Below are positions 115 to 43,458 of a stretch of DNA of 52,977 nucleotides, piece by piece. The position numbers and the translations under genes were made by a program. The stretch spans positions 1 to 52,977 of the forward strand of contig CAZGES010000003.1 in NCBI GenBank assembly GCA_964524375.1, written 5' to 3'. Each line of letters starts with the position of its first letter. Within the stretch, counting starts at the first letter, position 1. The DNA is from an uncultured archaeon. Lineage in GTDB: Archaea; Iainarchaeota; Iainarchaeia; Iainarchaeales; VGJJ01. The notes under the pieces are model-generated. The model saw only the letters and a program-made list of their open reading frames with translations. It had not been told where the DNA came from and searched no databases.

Positions 115-606
115 TTAGAGGTATTCCCTTTCCACGTTGATTTCCGCCGCGGAAATGAACTCGTTGGGCGTGTTTTCCGCGGGTTTGACGGTTTTTATCT
201 CCGTTTTCACGAGTTTTGGTTCCGGTCTCACGAATGGTTTGAGTTCATTCAACCCCGCGTGTTCCTGCGTCAACCGCTCCCACTCAATACTCGTTTGTCT
301 CACACAAAATTCCTTTTCCAGCTCATCAATCATTCGAATCCACTTGCACGCCAGCACATTCCTTCCGTCCGGCTGCGCGGAAATGATTCCATACGCGCGC
401 ACGTTCATGTTTTCACTCAGCACGGGGGCGTTTCTTTCTTCAATGAACCCTTCCCATTCTCCTTTTTCATCTTTCACACGCAGGCTTATTTCTCCATTGC
501 GGGTTTTGAGCTCCATGAGTTTTCCGTGCGCAAAGACCATTTTGTTTTCAATGGTTGAGCGCGGATACAAGGCGGGAGAGAATACGAATCGCACACCGGA
601 AGTCAT
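115..606 (-). CDS. OB-fold nucleic-acid-binding protein, RPA32/Stn1-like (putative)
   Basis: 163-aa ORF with an ATG start. ISLRVKDEKGEWEGFIEE...NVRAYGIISAQPDGRNVLACKWIRMIDELEKEF fits an RPA32-type OB barrel plus a helical tail. The family call is from memory. Confidence 0.4.
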   Translation of the reverse strand: MTSGVRFVFSPALYPRSTIENKMVFAHGKLMELKTRNGEISLRVKDEKGEWEGFIEERNAPVLSENMNVRAYGIISAQPDGRNVLACKWIRMIDELEKEFCVRQTSIEWERLTQEHAGLNELKPFVRPEPKLVKTEIKTVKPAENTPNEFISAAEINVEREYL

Positions 607-632
607 GATACTATACTACGTCGCGTTGGTTT

Positions 633-1469
633 TTATCCAAATAACACGGATGCTTTGAGAATCCCGTACATGAGGACCATTAACCCCACTTGCAAGGGCA
701 GCGCGGGGAGGGCTTTTCCCACATTCTTGCTCCCGTAATCGAGTGTAAAGGCCAGTCCTGCAAACGATGCTAACAGCACAGCGAGGGAAGGTATGACCGC
801 ATACGGCCAAATCCATCCAGCGTCTAATGATTCTCCTAAAATGGCCACGCTGAAGACAAGCGGCATGACCAAATCTCCCGTGCCTAATTCAAATTGGTGC
901 TTACTGGTTGGAAGCGCAAACGTGAAACTCAAATTTTTTTTCGCCACCGCTTTGGCCATCGTCACCATGTGTTTGGTTCTAAACACGGCGACGTAATCAT
1001 ACACGGCTAACAAAACCAAAAATACAATCACCGGCCACACGCCAATGCTCGCTCCTAATAGCGCGCCCACTCCCACCGTGGCAAGTGTAGAAGAAACGTT
1101 TCTCCAAATCAAGTATTGCGGGAAAAATATTCGAATGACAATAATGACAAACGCTAAAAATATGGCGAATTCTTCCGGGAGAAATGCAATCATCACAATA
1201 ACCGTACTAAAGAGCAGGGCCATGGCCTCCAATCCCTTGAGGAACCAATACAATACTTTGTCCGGGAAAAATTTAATCGCTGCGAGAATGACAAGCGTTC
1301 CCACGAGCATGTATCCTAAAAGTCCAAATGAATTCACCACATCATTCGGGTCATCATTGATGATAGTCGGTTGAACGTCCTGCAGAATCAAATAATGCCC
1401 CACAAACAGTCCAAGCAAATTGACAATCAAAAAATACCCCGCGAGCTGGGCAATGAGTCTTGTGTCCAT
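633..1469 (-). CDS. presenilin / signal-peptide-peptidase homolog (A22 intramembrane aspartyl protease)
   Basis: 278-aa polytopic membrane ORF with the three signature motifs in order: YD (LAVYDYVAV), GxGD (LGTGDLV) and PAL (KALPALP). Confidence 0.85.
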   Translation of the reverse strand: MDTRLIAQLAGYFLIVNLLGLFVGHYLILQDVQPTIINDDPNDVVNSFGLLGYMLVGTLVILAAIKFFPDKVLYWFLKGLEAMALLFSTVIVMIAFLPEEFAIFLAFVIIVIRIFFPQYLIWRNVSSTLATVGVGALLGASIGVWPVIVFLVLLAVYDYVAVFRTKHMVTMAKAVAKKNLSFTFALPTSKHQFELGTGDLVMPLVFSVAILGESLDAGWIWPYAVIPSLAVLLASFAGLAFTLDYGSKNVGKALPALPLQVGLMVLMYGILKASVLFG

Positions 1470-2016: not shown

Positions 2017-2331
2017 CTATCTCCTCTTGATGGGTGGAAATAAATTTTCGATGAGTATCGCATTCTTTCCATTTCGAACGCGGTCCGCGTTAATCACGCG
2101 GAGGTATTTTTGCGCGCTCGCCATTATTCCAAGCAGTTCTTTCTTGATTTTGGGGTCTGAATTGCCATTCATCTTTTTCTTCCAAATTTTTGCAATCTCA
2201 ATATGTTCGTCCAGCATCGCTTTGGCGTTGGCCAGTTTTACATACGCTCTCGGCCGAGTATTTCCCTCTCCTCCAAAACGCGCTGAATTTCTTCTTGGAG
2301 GATTTGTTTTTCGTCGTCGGGGGGTTGGCAT
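2017..2331 (-). CDS. small basic protein, MPxPR family (paralog of 2339..2656 and 51094..51501)
   Basis: 104 aa, begins MPTPRRRKTNPPRR. The C-terminal YLRVINADRVRNGKNAILIENL aligns with LAAVNIERKKRGKKPLTFNELEEL of the neighbouring gene. Confidence 0.55.
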   Translation of the reverse strand: MPTPRRRKTNPPRRNSARFGGEGNTRPRAYVKLANAKAMLDEHIEIAKIWKKKMNGNSDPKIKKELLGIMASAQKYLRVINADRVRNGKNAILIENLFPPIKRR

Positions 2332-2338
2332 CGTCTTT

Positions 2339-2656
2339 TCACTCTCTTTCTCGGATGAGTTCTTCTAATTCGTTGAACGTCAATGGTTTTTTTCCGCGTT
2401 TTTTTCGCTCAATATTTACTGCGGCTAAAAATGTTCTCGCCTGTTTTAATTCGGAGTCCATGGCGTGCCTCCATTCGTTTTCTTTGATTCTTCGCTGTTC
2501 TTTCGTCCATTTTCCTTCGATGGGGTCCTTTACACTCTCATTGAATTTTCTTCCCCATCGTGCGGCGTGTCGGTACGTTTGAACCATTTGTTCATCGGGT
2601 GATTTAGGTCCGGAGCGATTGGATTGGAGTCTTCGCGGCTTTCGGTTCGATGTCAT
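2339..2656 (-). CDS. small basic protein, MPxPR family
   Basis: 105 aa, begins MTSNRKPRRLQSNR. The C-terminal VNIERKKRGKKPLTFNELEELIRER motif is shared with 51094..51501. Confidence 0.55.
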   Translation of the reverse strand: MTSNRKPRRLQSNRSGPKSPDEQMVQTYRHAARWGRKFNESVKDPIEGKWTKEQRRIKENEWRHAMDSELKQARTFLAAVNIERKKRGKKPLTFNELEELIRERE

Positions 2657-2690
2657 TCAAACCGTGCGGTTTTCATGTTTATTAACATGC

Positions 2691-4847
2691 TCACATCGCT
2701 TTCAGGAAGCCGTGCGAGGGTTCGTAAATATCTCCCGCTTTCTTGAGTTTGGTGATGAGTTCGCGCACCTTTTCTTCTTCAATTCCGCGTGAAAGTGCTT
2801 CTGCCACCACATCTTGAATGGGGACCTTGTCCATTTCCTTGCTCTTTGCTCTAATAATATCCGTGATTGTGCGCATGTGGTCGCGCGAGGATTGTGTTTG
2901 CCCACTTGTAACGATGTCAATGTCAATTCTTCCCGTCTCCGGGTCCTTCACCACATCTTCCAACGACGCTCGTACGAGGCGCATGGCGCGTTCTGCATCC
3001 TCCTGTAAAACTTCATCACTCAATCGCACGCGTGCACTCGCTTCCGCCAATCGTACGAGTCCTTCCAATTGTCTCGCCGTCGCGGAGTAGCTTCCAGCCT
3101 GTCTTCCTTGGTCGCGCAGCCCCACATAAAAATCTTGTATCATTTGCGTGGCTTCTAAACTCAAAATGGGGAACACGCGCTGGCGCGAGTAGGAGATGTA
3201 TTTTCTCAAGAGTTCCGTGTCAATAATCGGCGTGACTTTTTCTTCCATGCGGAGCATTTCTTCCGTGTATCCTTTCTTTCCCGCGCGCTGCATTTGTAAC
3301 ATTTGCTCCCCCACCTTGTGCGAGGACAAAATGTGCGCCGCAATCATTTCATCTCGTTCCTTGTTCAACGTATCGTGAATCATGAAAAACAAATCAAATC
3401 GTGAAATTAAGGATGGGGGCAAATCAATTTGTTCAAAGAATGGCTTGAATTTATCAAAGCGCGAGAGTTTAGGATTGGCCGCCGCGAGAACACTCGTGTC
3501 CGTTTTGAATCGCGTCACCATTCCCGCTTTTGCCACGCTCACCATTCCCTGTTCCATCGCTTCGTGCATCGCCGACCGGTCTTCCGGTTCCATCTTATCA
3601 AACTCATCCACCATTACCATTCCGCCGCTGGCAAGAACGAGTGCACCTGCCTTGAGGGTCCATCCACCCTCGCCGAAGTCATCTTTGACAGCCGAGGCGG
3701 TCAGTCCCGCCGAGCTCGACCCTTTTCCTGAAACATACACACTCTTCGGCGCAATCTTATCAGTAGCCTGCAGCAAAATGGACTTTCCCGTTCCCGGGTC
3801 GCCCACTAACAACACGTGAATGTTCCCGCGAATTTTCATATCTCCCGGGAGGGTTTTTTTGACGCCGCCAAATAATTGGAGTGAAATGGATTCTTTGGCA
3901 ATGTCATGCCCGTGAATGGTTGGCGCAATGGATTGAATGAGTATTTCATAAATCTTAGGATTTTTTGCAATCTCCTTAATTTTTTCCTCATCCTCCTCGT
4001 TAATCGTCACATCCTCAAATTCTTTTTCGGTTTCTTCTAAGTGAATGGCTTCAAGATAACGGCCGTACACATTTTTCTTATCCTTGTTCGGCGGATACAA
4101 TCTCAAAATTCCCGTAATTTGCGTGCGGTTCCCCGGATACACACGATTGACAAAATCATCTTCAATGTACACGTCCAAATTCACCGCTTGCTCGCTTCCT
4201 TTGAGCATTTCCAGCGGTTCTTGAATCTGAATCTTTTGATAGTCCACGAATGTACTCTCTTCCGGAACCAATTCAAAATCCCTATGTTTGCAATTGCAAA
4301 ACGCCGGCTTGCGCTGCTGGTGCCCATCTTGCTCTAACACGTATTGGTTTCCGCACCGCTTGCAACGCCACGTCGCGCTTTTCAATTTTGGCATCACTTC
4401 AGTAACCTGTCGAATAACTCCTTCCACGGCAAACAGTTTTCCCAATTGTTGCGCGGAAATATCTCTCACGAGGGGGGTTTTGTCTTTGGGCAATCCACGA
4501 AAACGTACATTGGGAGAAAATTTGTCTAACTGTAACACCGGCACTTCAATTTTTTGCACCGCTAATTCCGCGGCTTCAATGAGCAAGTCCGGGTGAGCCA
4601 TTAATTCTTCCGCGAGTTGATAGTCAAACGAATCCACATCGTTGTAATCCACGATCAACGATTTGTTTTGCGGATATTCGTGCGCCAATTTTTCAATTTT
4701 CTTTTTGTATTCTAACGTAGAAAAAAATTCTTCAAATTTGGGGATGAATGGGTTTGCCGCCCCTTTGAGCGGGGTCTGTGCGATTTCCGTTTCTTCCGGT
4801 TTGTGGAAGCTCTTTGCTTCCTCGTATCCAAATCCTTCCCCTTCCAT
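2691..4847 (-). CDS. mcm: MCM replicative helicase
   Basis: 718 aa with a Zn motif (CKRCGN...CNCKH), Walker A (GDPGTGKS), Walker B (VDEFDKM) and an arginine finger (SRFDL). The motifs are contiguous, so there is no intein. Confidence 0.97.
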   Translation of the reverse strand: MEGEGFGYEEAKSFHKPEETEIAQTPLKGAANPFIPKFEEFFSTLEYKKKIEKLAHEYPQNKSLIVDYNDVDSFDYQLAEELMAHPDLLIEAAELAVQKIEVPVLQLDKFSPNVRFRGLPKDKTPLVRDISAQQLGKLFAVEGVIRQVTEVMPKLKSATWRCKRCGNQYVLEQDGHQQRKPAFCNCKHRDFELVPEESTFVDYQKIQIQEPLEMLKGSEQAVNLDVYIEDDFVNRVYPGNRTQITGILRLYPPNKDKKNVYGRYLEAIHLEETEKEFEDVTINEEDEEKIKEIAKNPKIYEILIQSIAPTIHGHDIAKESISLQLFGGVKKTLPGDMKIRGNIHVLLVGDPGTGKSILLQATDKIAPKSVYVSGKGSSSAGLTASAVKDDFGEGGWTLKAGALVLASGGMVMVDEFDKMEPEDRSAMHEAMEQGMVSVAKAGMVTRFKTDTSVLAAANPKLSRFDKFKPFFEQIDLPPSLISRFDLFFMIHDTLNKERDEMIAAHILSSHKVGEQMLQMQRAGKKGYTEEMLRMEEKVTPIIDTELLRKYISYSRQRVFPILSLEATQMIQDFYVGLRDQGRQAGSYSATARQLEGLVRLAEASARVRLSDEVLQEDAERAMRLVRASLEDVVKDPETGRIDIDIVTSGQTQSSRDHMRTITDIIRAKSKEMDKVPIQDVVAEALSRGIEEEKVRELITKLKKAGDIYEPSHGFLKAM

Positions 4848-24745: not shown

Positions 24746-24880
24746 ATGGCGTACAAATGCAACAAGTGTTTGCAAGTCTTGGACCAATTGCCTGTAGGGT
24801 TAATTCGCTGCCCTAATTGCGGTAATAAAGTTTTTTACAAAGTCCGCGCCCCTGTGGAAAAGCGCGTCATCGCTCGTTAA
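24746..24880 (+). CDS. rpoP: DNA-directed RNA polymerase subunit P (Rpo12)
   Basis: 44-aa ORF missing from the track: MAYKCNKCLQVLDQLPVGLIRCPNCGNKVFYKVRAPVEKRVIAR. It has a CxxC...CxxC zinc ribbon, starts 3 nt after the rpl37ae stop, and is in the canonical position. Confidence 0.8.
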   Translation: MAYKCNKCLQVLDQLPVGLIRCPNCGNKVFYKVRAPVEKRVIAR

Positions 24881-41053: not shown

Positions 41054-42307
41054 CTAAGGTGCTATTCGCGTCATTGTGCGCGGAAAACCAACTGTGTCTC
41101 GGATATGGTCTATTTTGAACAACCACATGGTCAGGCGAGATAGTCCAAGTCCACCACCTGTGTGGGGGGTACTGCCAAATTTTCGTAGGTCAACGTACCA
41201 TCGGTAATCAGATTCCTTCAATCCAGCAATTTTCATTCTCTTGACAAGTTCATCGTATTTCCAACATCGTTCTCCGCTTCCGATAATTTCCCCAAACCCT
41301 TCAGGAGCTAACATATCACAACAAAGCACTGTTTCGAGCCGCGTGGGGTCGGGGCGATGATAAAATGGTTTCAATACTGTGGGGTAATGGTGGACAAGGA
41401 TTGGCACCTCGAAATCTTTTGTTATTTCACGCTCGTGCATCTCTTGCAAGTCGTCTCCCCATTTAAGTTCAGGGAATTTTTGCTGAGCAATCTTGAAGAC
41501 CTCGTCGTACGTATATCGTGGGAATGTGATAGAAAGAATTTTTTTTAATTGTTCAGAGTCTCGTTCAAAATACTTCAATAAATCAGGAGCTTGTTCTATG
41601 ACGTATTGAATAACATGTTTGATTAGCTTTTCTTCAAACAACATTAATTCGTCAAGACTGGAAAAAGCTGTTTCCCACTCTGCGTGAGAAAATTCAGTTA
41701 AATGTCTGCGTGTGCGAGAGGGTTCTGCGCGAAATGAAGGGGTAATGGTGAAAACCTTTCCCATGGCGTGTGCATATGCCTCTAAATAAAATTGTGAGGT
41801 TCCAGAAAGCTGAACTTTTTTACCAAAATAGTCTACTTCGAAAACTTCATTTTGGCTTTCAACAGCACCCGTAACAAAAGTTGGACAGGGGACTTCTAAG
41901 TATCCTTCCTTTTTGAAAAAATCTCTAAATCCGTCCACTACTACAGAATATGCTCGCACACTATTTTGTAATCGTTCTGAACGGATAGCCAAATGGCGGA
42001 GATCAAGTAGGGCTTCCTCGCCTGTATCGTGATGGATAGGAAACTCTTCTGCTATTTGCACTATCCTTACTTTAGTTACGTGGAACTCTTTTCCGGAAGG
42101 AGCGCGTTTATCTTCCTGGAATGCGCCTTCGATTTCAATCGAGCTTTCGATAGGGGCTTTCCGAGCAAGTTCGTAGGCCTCACTATCAGAAACTTTATCC
42201 TTTGATAAAACAACTTGGAGTTCACGGAAATCTGCAGTGCGGACTAACCAAATGAGAGTGCCTTTGAAATCCCTCTTTTGTTTAATCCAACCACTGCATT
42301 TTTCCAT
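41054..42307 (-). CDS. asnS: asparaginyl-tRNA synthetase (class IIb)
   Basis: N-terminal OB domain. LSGTSQFYLEA, motif 2 (FRAEPSRTRRHLTEF), YRWYVDLRKFGSTPHTGGGLGLSRL and motif 3 all fit the AsnRS type. Start set to the ATG at 42307. Confidence 0.82.
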   Translation of the reverse strand: MEKCSGWIKQKRDFKGTLIWLVRTADFRELQVVLSKDKVSDSEAYELARKAPIESSIEIEGAFQEDKRAPSGKEFHVTKVRIVQIAEEFPIHHDTGEEALLDLRHLAIRSERLQNSVRAYSVVVDGFRDFFKKEGYLEVPCPTFVTGAVESQNEVFEVDYFGKKVQLSGTSQFYLEAYAHAMGKVFTITPSFRAEPSRTRRHLTEFSHAEWETAFSSLDELMLFEEKLIKHVIQYVIEQAPDLLKYFERDSEQLKKILSITFPRYTYDEVFKIAQQKFPELKWGDDLQEMHEREITKDFEVPILVHHYPTVLKPFYHRPDPTRLETVLCCDMLAPEGFGEIIGSGERCWKYDELVKRMKIAGLKESDYRWYVDLRKFGSTPHTGGGLGLSRLTMWLFKIDHIRDTVGFPRTMTRIAP

Positions 42308-42328
42308 ATATTCCACTCCAGAATTGTT

Positions 42329-42412
42329 TTACTGAGGTCCAGTACATGATGTACAGGCGTGACCTGAACAATTTGACTCGATTATCATTTCATATTTTGT
42401 CGTTACATTCAT
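42329..42412 (-). CDS. micro-ORF B, 27-aa Cys/Ser/Thr-rich peptide (MNVTTKYEMIIESNCSGHACTSCTGPQ)
   Basis: Not in the ORF track. AAGGGGGTGAAAACT precedes the ATG, the same SD spacing as rrp42. It shares ATGAATGTAA and AAATATGAAA with micro-ORF A. Confidence 0.5.
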   Translation of the reverse strand: MNVTTKYEMIIESNCSGHACTSCTGPQ

Positions 42413-42427
42413 AGTTTTCACCCCCTT

Positions 42428-42490
42428 TTATTCGTTTCCGCAGCAATTTATTTTTGCGTATTTTTTTTCATATTTTTCTCTTACATTCAT
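42428..42490 (-). CDS. micro-ORF A, 20-aa peptide (MNVREKYEKKYAKINCCGNE)
   Basis: Not in the ORF track. Its ATG overlaps the TGA of the upstream 133-aa gene (ATGA). The leader MNVxxKYE is shared with micro-ORF B. Confidence 0.45.
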   Translation of the reverse strand: MNVREKYEKKYAKINCCGNE

Positions 42491-42888
42491 GTGCTTTTCA
42501 CTTCCTTCTTTCGGAGACCCCAAATACCAATGACATCGGGTTCACCGAAATTGTCTTCATATGTTTGTATCGTGTTCCAAAAAGCTTCTCTATTCAGTTC
42601 ATTTTGTTTTTTGGAACCGTCAGAAGGAATGTGGTGGAGATATTTGCCGAATATTTTTGCCATTTGAAAGTAGAGTTTTGTGTGCATGATGCATTGGTGC
42701 CAATACTCGTCAATGACAGGCGGCGGGGACAATGTCTTTTTTGTTGATGCACAGAGGGCAAGGAATCGAAGCGTTTCTTTCTTTACTTTTTCAACCGAAT
42801 ATCCTTTCAAATCACACTCGGCAACTTTCTTATCTATGATAGAGTAGTCAAGTTTGTTCAATTTTTCAAATACGTGTTGGGCTTCCAT
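42487..42888 (-). CDS. His-motif protein resembling the GRDP-like/DUF1399 family (function unknown)
   Basis: ATG at 42888 (MEAQHVFEKL...). The conserved-looking core is VIDEYWHQCIMHTKLYFQMAKIFGKYLHHIP. The family assignment is from memory only. Confidence 0.55.
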   Translation of the reverse strand: MEAQHVFEKLNKLDYSIIDKKVAECDLKGYSVEKVKKETLRFLALCASTKKTLSPPPVIDEYWHQCIMHTKLYFQMAKIFGKYLHHIPSDGSKKQNELNREAFWNTIQTYEDNFGEPDVIGIWGLRKKEVKST

Positions 42889-42923
42889 TAGAACAAAGCC
42901 TGTCACGTGATTAATAGTCGTAC

Positions 42924-42967
42924 GGTTGAAACCAATTCAACCGCCAAGTTGATTTCCTTTCAACCGC
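42924..42967. promoter_or_regulatory. inverted and direct repeats in the divergent promoter region (candidate operator)
   Basis: GGTTGAA-ACCAA-TTCAACC is a perfect 7-bp inverted repeat. TTCAACCGC is repeated at 42936 and 42959, and the second copy abuts CCTATATTA (42968-42976). Confidence 0.35.
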
Positions 42968-43092
42968 GCCTATATTACTCGCGTGATAAGACTTCTCTTC
43001 ATGGTGCGTCATGCCAAATGGAAAATCGGGCGGAGCGAGCCTATCCCCTTTGTTTCTCCCCCGTTTTCCGTTGCGCGTGGGAAGTTGATCGT

Positions 43093-43458
43093 ATGAATTT
43101 GCGTGAGCAAGCATTGTTCAAAGCCGTTTCCTCGTTTGAGGACATTGGTTTCATGGAGTGGCACGCCCGTGTTTTGCGTGAGCTTTCCACGACTCCGTTG
43201 CCCGTCAAAGAGATTTCCCGCCGCACGGGATTGTTTCATTATCAAATTCAAGGCGTGCTGCAGGATTTGTTGGCGTTGCAATTGATCGAGTATACGCGCT
43301 ATGGTATTCAACTCATCGATGATTGGAGTGCTTTCGCACAATTAGTGGATTGTTGCGAAGGAAAGGGAAGAAAATCCTCGTACGATTGGGAGGCCGCGTT
43401 TGAGATTGCTCTTCCTCGTGTTGTGAGTTTGAAGAAGAAGTTTGATTTTGACGGGTGA
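43093..43458 (+). CDS. winged-helix transcriptional regulator (MarR/TrmB-like)
   Basis: WHARVLRELSTTPLPVKEISRRTGLFHYQIQGVLQDLLALQLIEY. An alternative in-frame ATG lies at 43018. The track ORF start at 42907 is implausible. Confidence 0.6.
   Translation: MNLREQALFKAVSSFEDIGFMEWHARVLRELSTTPLPVKEISRRTGLFHYQIQGVLQDLLALQLIEYTRYGIQLIDDWSAFAQLVDCCEGKGRKSSYDWEAAFEIALPRVVSLKKKFDFDG

Follow-up and report, generated by a model that had tools for sequence, protein, structure and literature searches.

Proteins of the PF27765 family (UCP032817-like), of the GRDP-like/DUF1399 family PF07173, which includes the plant proteins GRDP1 and GRDP2, and of the TIGR04222 membrane group belong to one superfamily, counting 6,131 clusters at 50% identity in archaea, bacteria, giant viruses and plants, with no known biochemistry and no solved structure. 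Their fused architecture, a domain continuing into a Cys/Gly-rich tail, is already known and named, its function being left blank. Here we describe a locus where the two parts are encoded apart: in a stretch of 52,977 nucleotides from an uncultured archaeon of the Iainarchaeota (assembly GCA_964524375.1, contig CAZGES010000003.1, positions 1 to 52,977), called "the window" below, the gene of a stand-alone PF27765 domain of 133 amino acids (aa) is followed by two tandem genes for cysteine-rich micro-peptides, A and B. A note made from the sequence alone, the original prediction, had seen in them a previously undescribed small-peptide system. This applies to what appears to be new, namely the split form, with leader-bearing peptides, and the association of the family with the machinery of peptides made by the ribosome and modified post-translationally (RiPPs); it does not apply to the fused architecture, already named ("glycine-rich domain-containing protein", TIGR04222). 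The searchable literature yielded no description of these archaeal peptides and no link between RiPPs and PF27765, UCP032817, DUF1399 or GRDP.

The window protein has the same annotation tag and the same conserved core as the other PF27765 proteins. Most of these, however, carry a Cys/Gly/Ser tail in one polypeptide, whereas the window protein ends in a Lys-rich stub and the cysteine-rich part is found in separate micro-peptides, each with its own leader. The plant GRDPs belong to the same superfamily, as judged from bridging proteins and fold, but the PF07173 model misses the window protein; they are multi-domain proteins of about 800 aa, known from stress and development phenotypes only, and come without separate peptides. 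The C-terminal Gly-rich domain of plant GRDP2 has cysteines interspersed (PMC4299439); a Gly-rich, often Cys-interspersed region C-terminal to the domain is not present in the 133-aa protein. Some TIGR04222 proteins (P0060, and L032-L038 from Bacteroidota) feature the domain at the N-terminus, transmembrane segments and a tail in ...GCGGGCGGCGGGD. The window protein differs in having no transmembrane region and its tail in trans; moreover, no gene for an oxidative enzyme dependent on multinuclear non-haem iron (MNIO, DUF692) is found among the about 30 window open reading frames (ORFs) scanned with Pfam and NCBIfam (34.5-49.3 kb, plus ten selected ORFs within 0.6-32.7 kb; small ORFs and a few others excepted).

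Two groups of modified peptides are also to be compared. As in thiazole/oxazole-modified microcin (TOMM) and NHLP systems, a conserved leader is joined to a variable Cys/Ser/Thr/Gly core and precursor paralogues occur in tandem; in Chlamydiales, a PF27765 domain is physically located in such a cluster, fused to a leader-binding module. Unlike the precursors of these systems, the window peptides have leaders of only about 15 aa, unrelated to NHLP or Nif11; YcaO, E1-like protein, dehydrogenase, protease and exporter are neither among the window ORFs scanned nor recorded in the other split loci. Bufferins, methanobactins and oxazolins, which are MNIO-modified and copper-binding, are likewise small peptides with functional or modified cysteines and a possible metal role (PMC12452194), but they start from precursors that either bear a Sec signal peptide or come from other families (DUF2282 etc.), and that require an MNIO and partner proteins, none of which is found in the window cassette.

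Micro-peptide genes behind a tail-less domain

The elements of the cassette are the following:

42487..42888, minus strand: gene of the 133-aa protein, ATG start; stand-alone PF27765 (UCP032817-like, GRDP-like superfamily) domain, Lys-rich C-terminus without Cys tail
42498..42505, minus strand: Shine-Dalgarno-like GGAAGTGA, 7 nt upstream of the peptide A ATG and still inside the 133-aa gene, in its final codons
42428..42490, minus strand: gene of peptide A, MNVREKYEKKYAKINCCGNE, with 20 aa; a CC core follows the leader of about 15 aa
42418..42425, minus strand: Shine-Dalgarno element of peptide B, GGGGGTGA, 5 nt upstream of its ATG
42329..42412, minus strand: peptide B gene, 27 aa, MNVTTKYEMIIESNCSGHACTSCTGPQ; leader motif M-N-V-x-x-K-Y-E, hypervariable Cys/Ser/Thr/Gly core with 4 Cys

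Coordinates and sequences of the two tandem micro-ORFs agree with the original prediction, and so do the overlap of the peptide A ATG (42490-42488) with the TGA of the 133-aa gene (42489-42487) as ATGA, the Shine-Dalgarno element of peptide B (AAAGGGGGTGAAAACT-ATG), and the strings common to both peptides (ATGAATGTAA at the start, AAATATGAAA internally). Peptide B starts 15 nt after the peptide A stop; its cysteines are spaced C-x4-C-x2-C-x2-C..., while peptide A features CC only. The domain gene, for which an alternative GTG at 42906 would give 139 aa instead of 133, encodes the C-terminus ...WGLRKKEVKST. Within about 20 nt of peptide B an asnS-like gene follows, coding for a class II aminoacyl-tRNA synthetase: the gap to asnS, first given as 170 nt, exists, but measures 171 nt from the 133-aa gene to a GTG at 42316, and the likelier start is the ATG at 42307. 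No terminator was found between the domain gene and asnS, the scan for sigma-70 promoters and terminators being at chance level; Rfam, at gathering thresholds, reports no RNA family in the cassette region, but only four distant tRNAs.

Two close homologues of the 133-aa protein were found among 5.8 billion clusters, and a profile, together with a second homologue search, added three tail-less relatives. The synteny count includes the tail-less homologues with readable DNA (P0005, P0008, P0010, P0012 and P0014 are left out): the split-locus sample is made of six loci (window, L001/L002, L003, L029, L030, L031), from about five lineages, with 12 peptide units. Cys-rich peptide ORFs come immediately downstream of the tail-less, Lys-terminated homologue (27-78% identity) in all six; at this level of domain identity, the loci are not assembly duplicates. 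The units outside the window are:

L001/L002: MTVQQKYEKKYAKIDCCGRMQ (ATGA overlap); MSVQKKYEKKCNKLDCSHGCSSCSTCSSCTRA
L003: four units, MTVREKYERKYAKINCCGAGCSSA; NIRKKYERIHYTNCDSGNCCGGR, GTG-started and overlapping the preceding stop; MNVQNKYTRIQKPLQCSCDGGTGCQT; MNAQNKYIKIAKSECNSGNGCSQSGSCSATP
L029: two units in one frame, the second with its own internal Shine-Dalgarno element and ATG
L030: one unit, 55 aa
L031: MVTIEQVKQKYVVDKDGISKSRADNCCCGC

Of these, MTVQQKYEKKYAKIDCCGRMQ of L001 and MTVREKYERKYAKINCCGAGCSSA of L003 are orthologues of peptide A, and units paralogous to peptide B occur in L001, L003 and L029. A Shine-Dalgarno-like element is located 5-10 nt upstream of all 12 units. The first peptide is preceded by GGGAGTGA, GGAGG or GGGGGTGA in each of the six loci, and GGGGGTGA is also found before second or later units in L001, L003, L029 and L031. 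Tyr7 is present in 11 of the 12 units; the Cys run starts at position 15-16 in 10 of them, as scored by script, or in 11, if the single Cys within the leader of peptide B from L001 is not counted. A pattern combining both features picks out 13 starts among the 7,246 of short ORFs in 295 kb; each of the 13 comes right after the gene of a tail-less domain and has a Shine-Dalgarno element. As the pattern was derived from these same peptides, the count is a measure of specificity only. The peptide sequences, in all start variants, are absent from about 15 billion predicted proteins, in agreement with their description as unannotated: these genes of 20-55 aa constitute a new family missed by gene callers, with the exception of a 73-aa frame in L029.

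Selection was evaluated from the proportions of synonymous (pS) and non-synonymous (pN) differences. Between window and L003, peptide A differs at 12 of 54 nt over 18 codons, 8 of them at third positions (pS = 1.0, pN = 0.06); the comparison with L001 gives pS 0.88 and pN 0.10, and the other two frames contain stops. For peptide B pN (0.45) is close to pS (0.51), and only the M-x-V-x-x-K-Y-E leader and the cysteines are kept. The 133-aa gene, compared with L001, has a dN/dS ratio of 0.08. Judging from these codon comparisons, peptide A is clearly under strong purifying selection at the protein level; peptide B evolves fast. The combination of conserved leader and hypervariable core is, as far as sequence can tell, a precursor layout, and the micro-ORFs, by their conservation and signals, are evidently conserved genes equipped for translation. 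The interpretation as leader-plus-core pair, rather than chance ORFs, had been offered from the window alone; it is supported by the six loci, by the Shine-Dalgarno elements at all units and by the pS and pN of peptide A. In the homologous loci, uninterrupted micro-ORFs with the same leader-plus-Cys-core layout are kept directly downstream, as anticipated.

The domain and its cysteine-rich tail

Most of the family carries a cysteine-rich segment on the domain protein itself. Of the best 151 representatives (out of 6,131), 88 have at least two Cys in the last 25 residues, where Cys accounts for 9.3% of residues, versus 1.8% elsewhere. The tail of the closest fused relative, P0004, reads ...NCSCNPTCKTTC...SGHNCTCSGCKPENN (...NCSCNPTC...SGHNCTCSGCK) and resembles the core of peptide B. 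Other soluble short forms end in ...NDCSSHNCTCSGCKSSCKQS, ...ADCGPCQGPP or ...SHNCTCSNY; bacterial forms (Bacteroidota, Leisingera, Phycisphaeraceae) have inserted transmembrane segments and the ...GCGGGCGGCGGGD tail. A scan of the genome collection with a custom alignment found nine bacterial loci, all of the fused transmembrane-tail type; with the close alignment, nothing was found. A basic stub, WG[LI]xKK, is the common C-terminus of the tail-less close relatives. Fused tails and split cores have the same opening, a [D/N]-Cys junction, in 17 of 38 cases (p = 2e-8, against a background of 9.6%) and in 7 of 12, respectively. The tail-less subfamilies L016, L020, L022 and L025 feature a conserved C-terminal ...GKPPxxWSGWTG motif and no Cys-rich tail.

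Since 88 of 151 relatives carry a fused Cys/Gly/Ser-rich tail, the window shows a split version of the domain-plus-tail architecture, where the micro-peptides, to judge from the tail comparison, are the trans-encoded counterpart of the tail fused to the domain in most of the family. Such fusion and fission is classic (Rosetta-stone) evidence that domain and Cys-rich segment work together, and the split arrangement indicates functional coupling of domain and tail, beyond mere adjacency. The proposal of the His-motif protein as peptide partner is strongly backed by the fused tails of most members, along with the four RiPP links reported in the next section.

PF27765.1 is the precomputed annotation tag of the window protein (P0001) and of all its close homologues. 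A local Pfam and NCBIfam search assigned no family to the 133-aa protein, PF27765 included; PF07173 was not matched at E <= 0.1, and the NCBIfam scan gave no match to TIGR04222. Given the lack of a local Pfam match, membership in PF27765 is based on the annotation of the collection and on a strong profile match to its members, one of which, from Nonomuraea, is called "glycine-rich domain-containing protein" by NCBI. A three-sequence profile retrieves the 6,131 representative clusters at E <= 1e-3, and thousands of members, including the window protein, have in common the core P-x-x-x-D-E-x-W-H ... Y ... G-x-x-x-H-H-x-P. In 65 diverse sequences, D60, W63, Y73 and H86 are invariant, and P55, H64, T70, G81, H85, P88 and G115 are at least 90% conserved. 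The originally noted His motif (DEYWHQCIMHTKLY...GKYLHH) is present, but its H69, second His in WHxxxxH, varies within the family; D60, W63, H64, Y73, H85 and H86 are the residues that are kept. The conserved polar residues suggest a possible metal or catalytic site.

The fold was predicted by AlphaFold2 on the 65-sequence alignment, used for the domain model since the three-sequence run reached a mean predicted local distance difference test (pLDDT) of 59.6: the protein is modelled as soluble, all-alpha, with six helices (pLDDT 94.1, predicted template modelling score 0.88) and a disordered Lys-rich C-terminus. In the PDB neither a fold match by Foldseek (best template modelling (TM) score about 0.2) nor a profile match to sequences (best E = 0.19) was obtained. 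The viral structure predictions gave as best match a protein of a giant virus, annotated "Glycine-rich domain-containing protein-like" (TM 0.78, probability 1.0). Bridging proteins, retrieved by the window-family profile, pass PF07173 on the same residues (P0016 46.6 bits, P0036 24.9, P0058 23.1; gathering score 22.7 bits). The window protein is therefore assigned to the GRDP-like superfamily, but not to PF07173 sensu stricto: PF07173 misses it, while bridging proteins and fold match link it. The GRDP-like/DUF1399 core named in the original prediction is thus found at the level of superfamily and fold, but not by the PF07173 search, and the family is indeed one without assigned biochemistry, rather than a well-characterised one unrelated to peptides.

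In apparent eukaryotic and giant-viral versions (L012, L017, L023; P0016, P0043; BFVD A0A3G4ZPD8, from Terrestrivirus) the domain is fused to ubiquitin/SUMO-like (Rad60-SLD) domains. The L012, L017 and L023 proteins end in ...QQGC, and L007 shows a weak F-box match. The fusions may hint at a link of the domain to the C-terminal Gly/Cys chemistry of ubiquitin-like proteins.

Association with RiPP machinery and neighbouring genes

The domain is tied to RiPP machinery in four independent ways: by L005, by a Chlamydiales cluster, by a Nonomuraea gene and by published TIGR04222-MNIO neighbourhoods. In L005 (5660..7896 region) it is fused N-terminally to a radical-SAM/SPASM enzyme, in a 544-aa protein; no convincing Cys-rich precursor is seen nearby. 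The end of the fusion gene is overlapped by a gene for a 201-aa protein, a putative methyltransferase from the GxGxG motif in its translation.

The second case comes from metagenome-assembled genomes of Chlamydiales, with an NHLP-type cluster located at:

L041/L042, 7001..13507
L043, 3270..4862

There, P0058/P0165 consists of a winged helix, a TOMM leader-binding E1-like module (TIGR03882, 72-74 bits, cutoff 36.9) and the PF27765 domain, located where the nearest relatives (about 740 aa) have YcaO. The next gene encodes a 91-aa NHLP-family precursor (TIGR03793, 54.1 bits, cutoff 50.9), ending in ...NIAAASCASPSGCFGPP (...CASPSGCFGPP), and is followed by an HlyD-type adaptor, the dedicated NHLP C39-peptidase ABC exporter (TIGR03796, 878 bits) and a second ABC subunit. 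YcaO is not recorded within +/-7 kb, and the replacement of YcaO by the domain in an NHLP cluster appears to be a new observation. A protein of 854 aa without family is encoded upstream (2180..4744).

In cultured Nonomuraea purpurea (L044 6001..10374), a 206-aa PF27765 gene is followed, 2 nt past its stop, by an 899-aa fusion of TfuA-related and YcaO-type kinase parts (TIGR00702, 100.9 bits, cutoff 75.65), with a radical-SAM gene next, in an apparent operon. The 206-aa product, which has a C-terminal ...ESCKSSQHHCKK... segment, could be a substrate or a partner of a thioamidation-type pathway. Finally, P0060 is a bona fide TIGR04222 protein (81 bits) carrying the PF27765 domain. TIGR04222 Cys-tail proteins have been proposed as MNIO substrates, their N-terminal moiety possibly taking part in biogenesis; a third of the TIGR04222 genomes lack an MNIO, and many TIGR04222-MNIO clusters have no separate partner protein (PMC12452194).

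As to the surroundings of the split loci, the only components in common are the domain, the peptides and a small zinc-ribbon protein, encoded after the peptides in five of the six:

L001, 2141..2245
L003, 1293..1484
L029, 970..1185
L030, 2646..2870
L031, 716..841

The protein has the motif C-x2-C-[GN]-x2-I ... G-x-C-[VIL]-x-C, with 51% identity between the L003 and L029 copies; no match was found in PHROGs (L003 and L029 copies) or in NCBIfam (L029 copy). It may be a third component of the cassette. The window has no such partner: its sole good small ORF of the CxxC...CxxC type (24746..24880, plus strand, 44 aa, MAYKCNKCLQVLDQLPVGLIRCPNCGNKVFYKV...) resembles archaeal RNA polymerase subunit P and is unrelated to the cassette zinc-ribbon.

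The source of L001 is closely related to the window organism: the flanking FtsJ-like methyltransferase shares 87% identity, and the MarR-like gene, which occupies the corresponding place, 91% over 120 aa. Between the MarR-like and the domain genes, L001 has an extra gene of 197 aa without family (849..1442); downstream of the cassette a zinc-ribbon and a GNAT gene are found, and not asnS. In the window, the corresponding gene is:

43093..43458, plus strand: MarR-like winged-helix gene, divergent, about 121 aa; possible regulator, listed as context

Its MarR_2 match (E = 4.9e-5) is under the Pfam cutoff. The 183-aa ORF at 42907..43458 (plus strand) is over-extended, the L001 homology setting the start at 43093, so that about 200 bp of intergenic sequence separate the divergent gene from the cassette. 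The gene content of the window is archaeal (exosome Rrp4-like, RNase PH subunits, NMD3).

Gene structure deserves a comment in two loci. In L029 (683..904) the two units share the 73-aa frame, the spacer with the second Shine-Dalgarno element (AAAAGGGGGTGAAACT, translated ...KGGET) being stop-free; the second unit can also start at its own ATG (809). The 73-aa frame is the sole peptide ORF recorded by a gene caller. In L031 (175..630) the recorded 151-aa P0017 product crosses an in-frame TAG, and the translation of the locus differs from the query: if the TAG is taken as a stop, the end of the domain gene lies at 588, with the Cys-rich peptide ORF next (590..682). The read-through is to be put down either to faulty gene calling or to a reassigned stop codon in that organism. 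In L003, L029 and L030 the cassette lies amid long runs of small co-oriented genes without Pfam match, with the look of a mobile element or virus; a further orphan protein of about 57 aa is common to L029 and L030, and an Rce1-like CPBP protease is encoded near the L029 cassette. A phage or a defence system finds no support: domain and zinc-ribbon proteins have no PHROGs or PADLOC match, and the viral contigs scan found no relative.

Readings of the cassette

The best explanation of the whole, to which we give about an even chance, is a minimal two-component, RiPP-like pair of putative maturase and precursor. Its parts differ in strength: that the domain is the partner of the peptides, and these its split tail, is very probable, while the chance that the domain itself is the catalyst is even or slightly below. 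In the archaeal sub-clade, the tail would be supplied in trans by one to four tandem, separately translated micro-peptides, each with a leader of about 15 aa (M-[NTSD]-[VAI]-x-x-[KR]-Y-x-[KR]-[KI]...) and a hypervariable Cys-rich core from an [N/D/E]-Cys junction onwards. Peptide A would be made by termination-reinitiation at the ATGA, peptide B from its own Shine-Dalgarno element. The domain would then dock the leader, and a cluster of Asp60, His64, His85 and His86, presumably a metal site, would modify or cross-link the core cysteines, the pair having no dedicated protease or exporter in the window. Precursors with conserved leader and variable core beside a putative processing protein, the generic mark of RiPP systems, are found for 12 units in 6 loci.

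Several points weigh against the maturase-precursor pair. Peptide modification is deduced from association, and the short leader and low-complexity cores also fit plain metal-binding peptides. The spatial clustering of D60, H64, H85 and H86 is putative, derived from conservation rather than from model coordinates. In the MNIO/TIGR04222, Nonomuraea and L005 contexts another enzyme that could do the chemistry is present, so that the domain might only recognise or present the peptide. As already stated in the original prediction, no known maturase is nearby: MNIO, YcaO, radical-SAM, LanB/C/M, E1-like protein, dehydrogenase, protease and exporter are all missing from the window ORFs scanned, and the precomputed Pfam tags of L001, L003 and L029-L031 record no protease, exporter or known maturase. 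A leader protease or exporter, common but not universal in RiPP clusters, is present in the Chlamydiales one. The split-locus sample is small, with about five lineages, all from metagenomes. Moreover, for the tail-less subfamilies L016, L020, L022 and L025, the screen found no Cys-rich ORF downstream; having neither tail nor such an ORF, they indicate that not every member of the domain family is paired with cysteines.

One alternative, which we consider unlikely, takes the peptides as genuine precursors and the PF27765 domain as a recognition module or scaffold, which docks or presents them, like a RiPP recognition element or an MNIO partner, to an MNIO, YcaO or radical-SAM maturase encoded elsewhere. 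The N-terminal position of the domain in the L005 radical-SAM/SPASM fusion agrees with this, RiPP maturases usually carrying a recognition element at that position, and so does the Nonomuraea gene, directly followed by the TfuA-YcaO fusion and the radical-SAM enzyme. The frequent lack of a separate partner protein in TIGR04222-MNIO clusters points the same way, but the third of TIGR04222 genomes devoid of MNIO points the other (PMC12452194). Invariant Asp, His, Tyr and Trp residues across very diverse members would be unusual for a pure peptide-binding module; in Chlamydiales the domain occupies the catalytic YcaO place beside a separate leader-binding module, with no other recognisable enzyme there; and no maturase is available among the window ORFs scanned or recorded in the other split loci.

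A second alternative, rated as equally improbable, is that of small, covalently unmodified, thiolate-rich peptides, metal-binding (metallothionein-like) or redox-active, with the His/Asp domain as metal donor, acceptor or sensor. Hydrophilic, Cys-rich cores with C-x2-3-C spacing, the conserved His and Asp of the partner domain, the lack of protease and exporter among the window ORFs scanned, and the zinc-ribbon protein usually next after the cassette all suit this role, and the known Cys-derived RiPPs of MNIO type act in copper handling (PMC12452194). A conserved leader, hypervariable cores and tandem paralogues with 2-6 Cys, however, correspond to a RiPP precursor pattern more than to a defined metal site, and peptide A has only two Cys, adjacent to each other; in addition, peptide-modifying enzymes and the NHLP export system recur as fusion partners or neighbours of the family.

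Non-functional ORFs, whether chance ORFs, regulatory upstream ORFs of asnS or remnants of a fused tail, decaying or joined by a -1 frameshift, are very improbable: they are very short and lie in the 5' region of an asnS-like gene, but are kept in six loci, with a Shine-Dalgarno element at every unit, independent starts for peptides B, C and D, and purifying selection on peptide A, and they are not asnS leader peptides, as the close relative L001 keeps the cassette with zinc-ribbon and GNAT genes downstream instead of asnS. Upstream of the peptide A ATG, more than 10 codons of the -1 frame are free of stops in the window, L001 and L003, because the Lys codons are T-poor, and L001 has an A-AAA-AAG heptamer; a programmed -1 frameshift between domain and peptide A was rejected, the window having A-AAG-AAG and no canonical slippery heptamer, and L030 and L031 using other frames. 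From the sequence comparisons, chance ORFs, asnS leaders and frameshift fusion appear effectively excluded.

What the split cassette may mean for the family goes beyond the archaeal sub-clade. A new class of peptide-modifying enzymes may realistically stand behind it. More tentatively, and on balance doubtful, the PF27765/GRDP-like (DUF1399) domain as a whole might be an unrecognised metal-dependent, peptide-modifying enzyme fold acting on Cys-rich segments; in most bacteria, giant viruses and plants the segment would be its own tail, in cis, and in these archaea the leader-bearing micro-peptides, in trans. The split form, along with the radical-SAM, TOMM leader-binding and TfuA-YcaO contexts, makes the role of the Gly/Cys-rich tails and of their domain testable: the folded domain is parted from its Cys-rich partner, in a co-expressible system of three genes and about 560 bp, easier to handle than a membrane protein with a low-complexity tail. 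Should the proposal be true, the window would represent the founding "split" example of a new RiPP class, and would provide the first biochemical handle on a domain found in every domain of life, with the plant GRDP stress proteins and the TIGR04222 proteins among its carriers.

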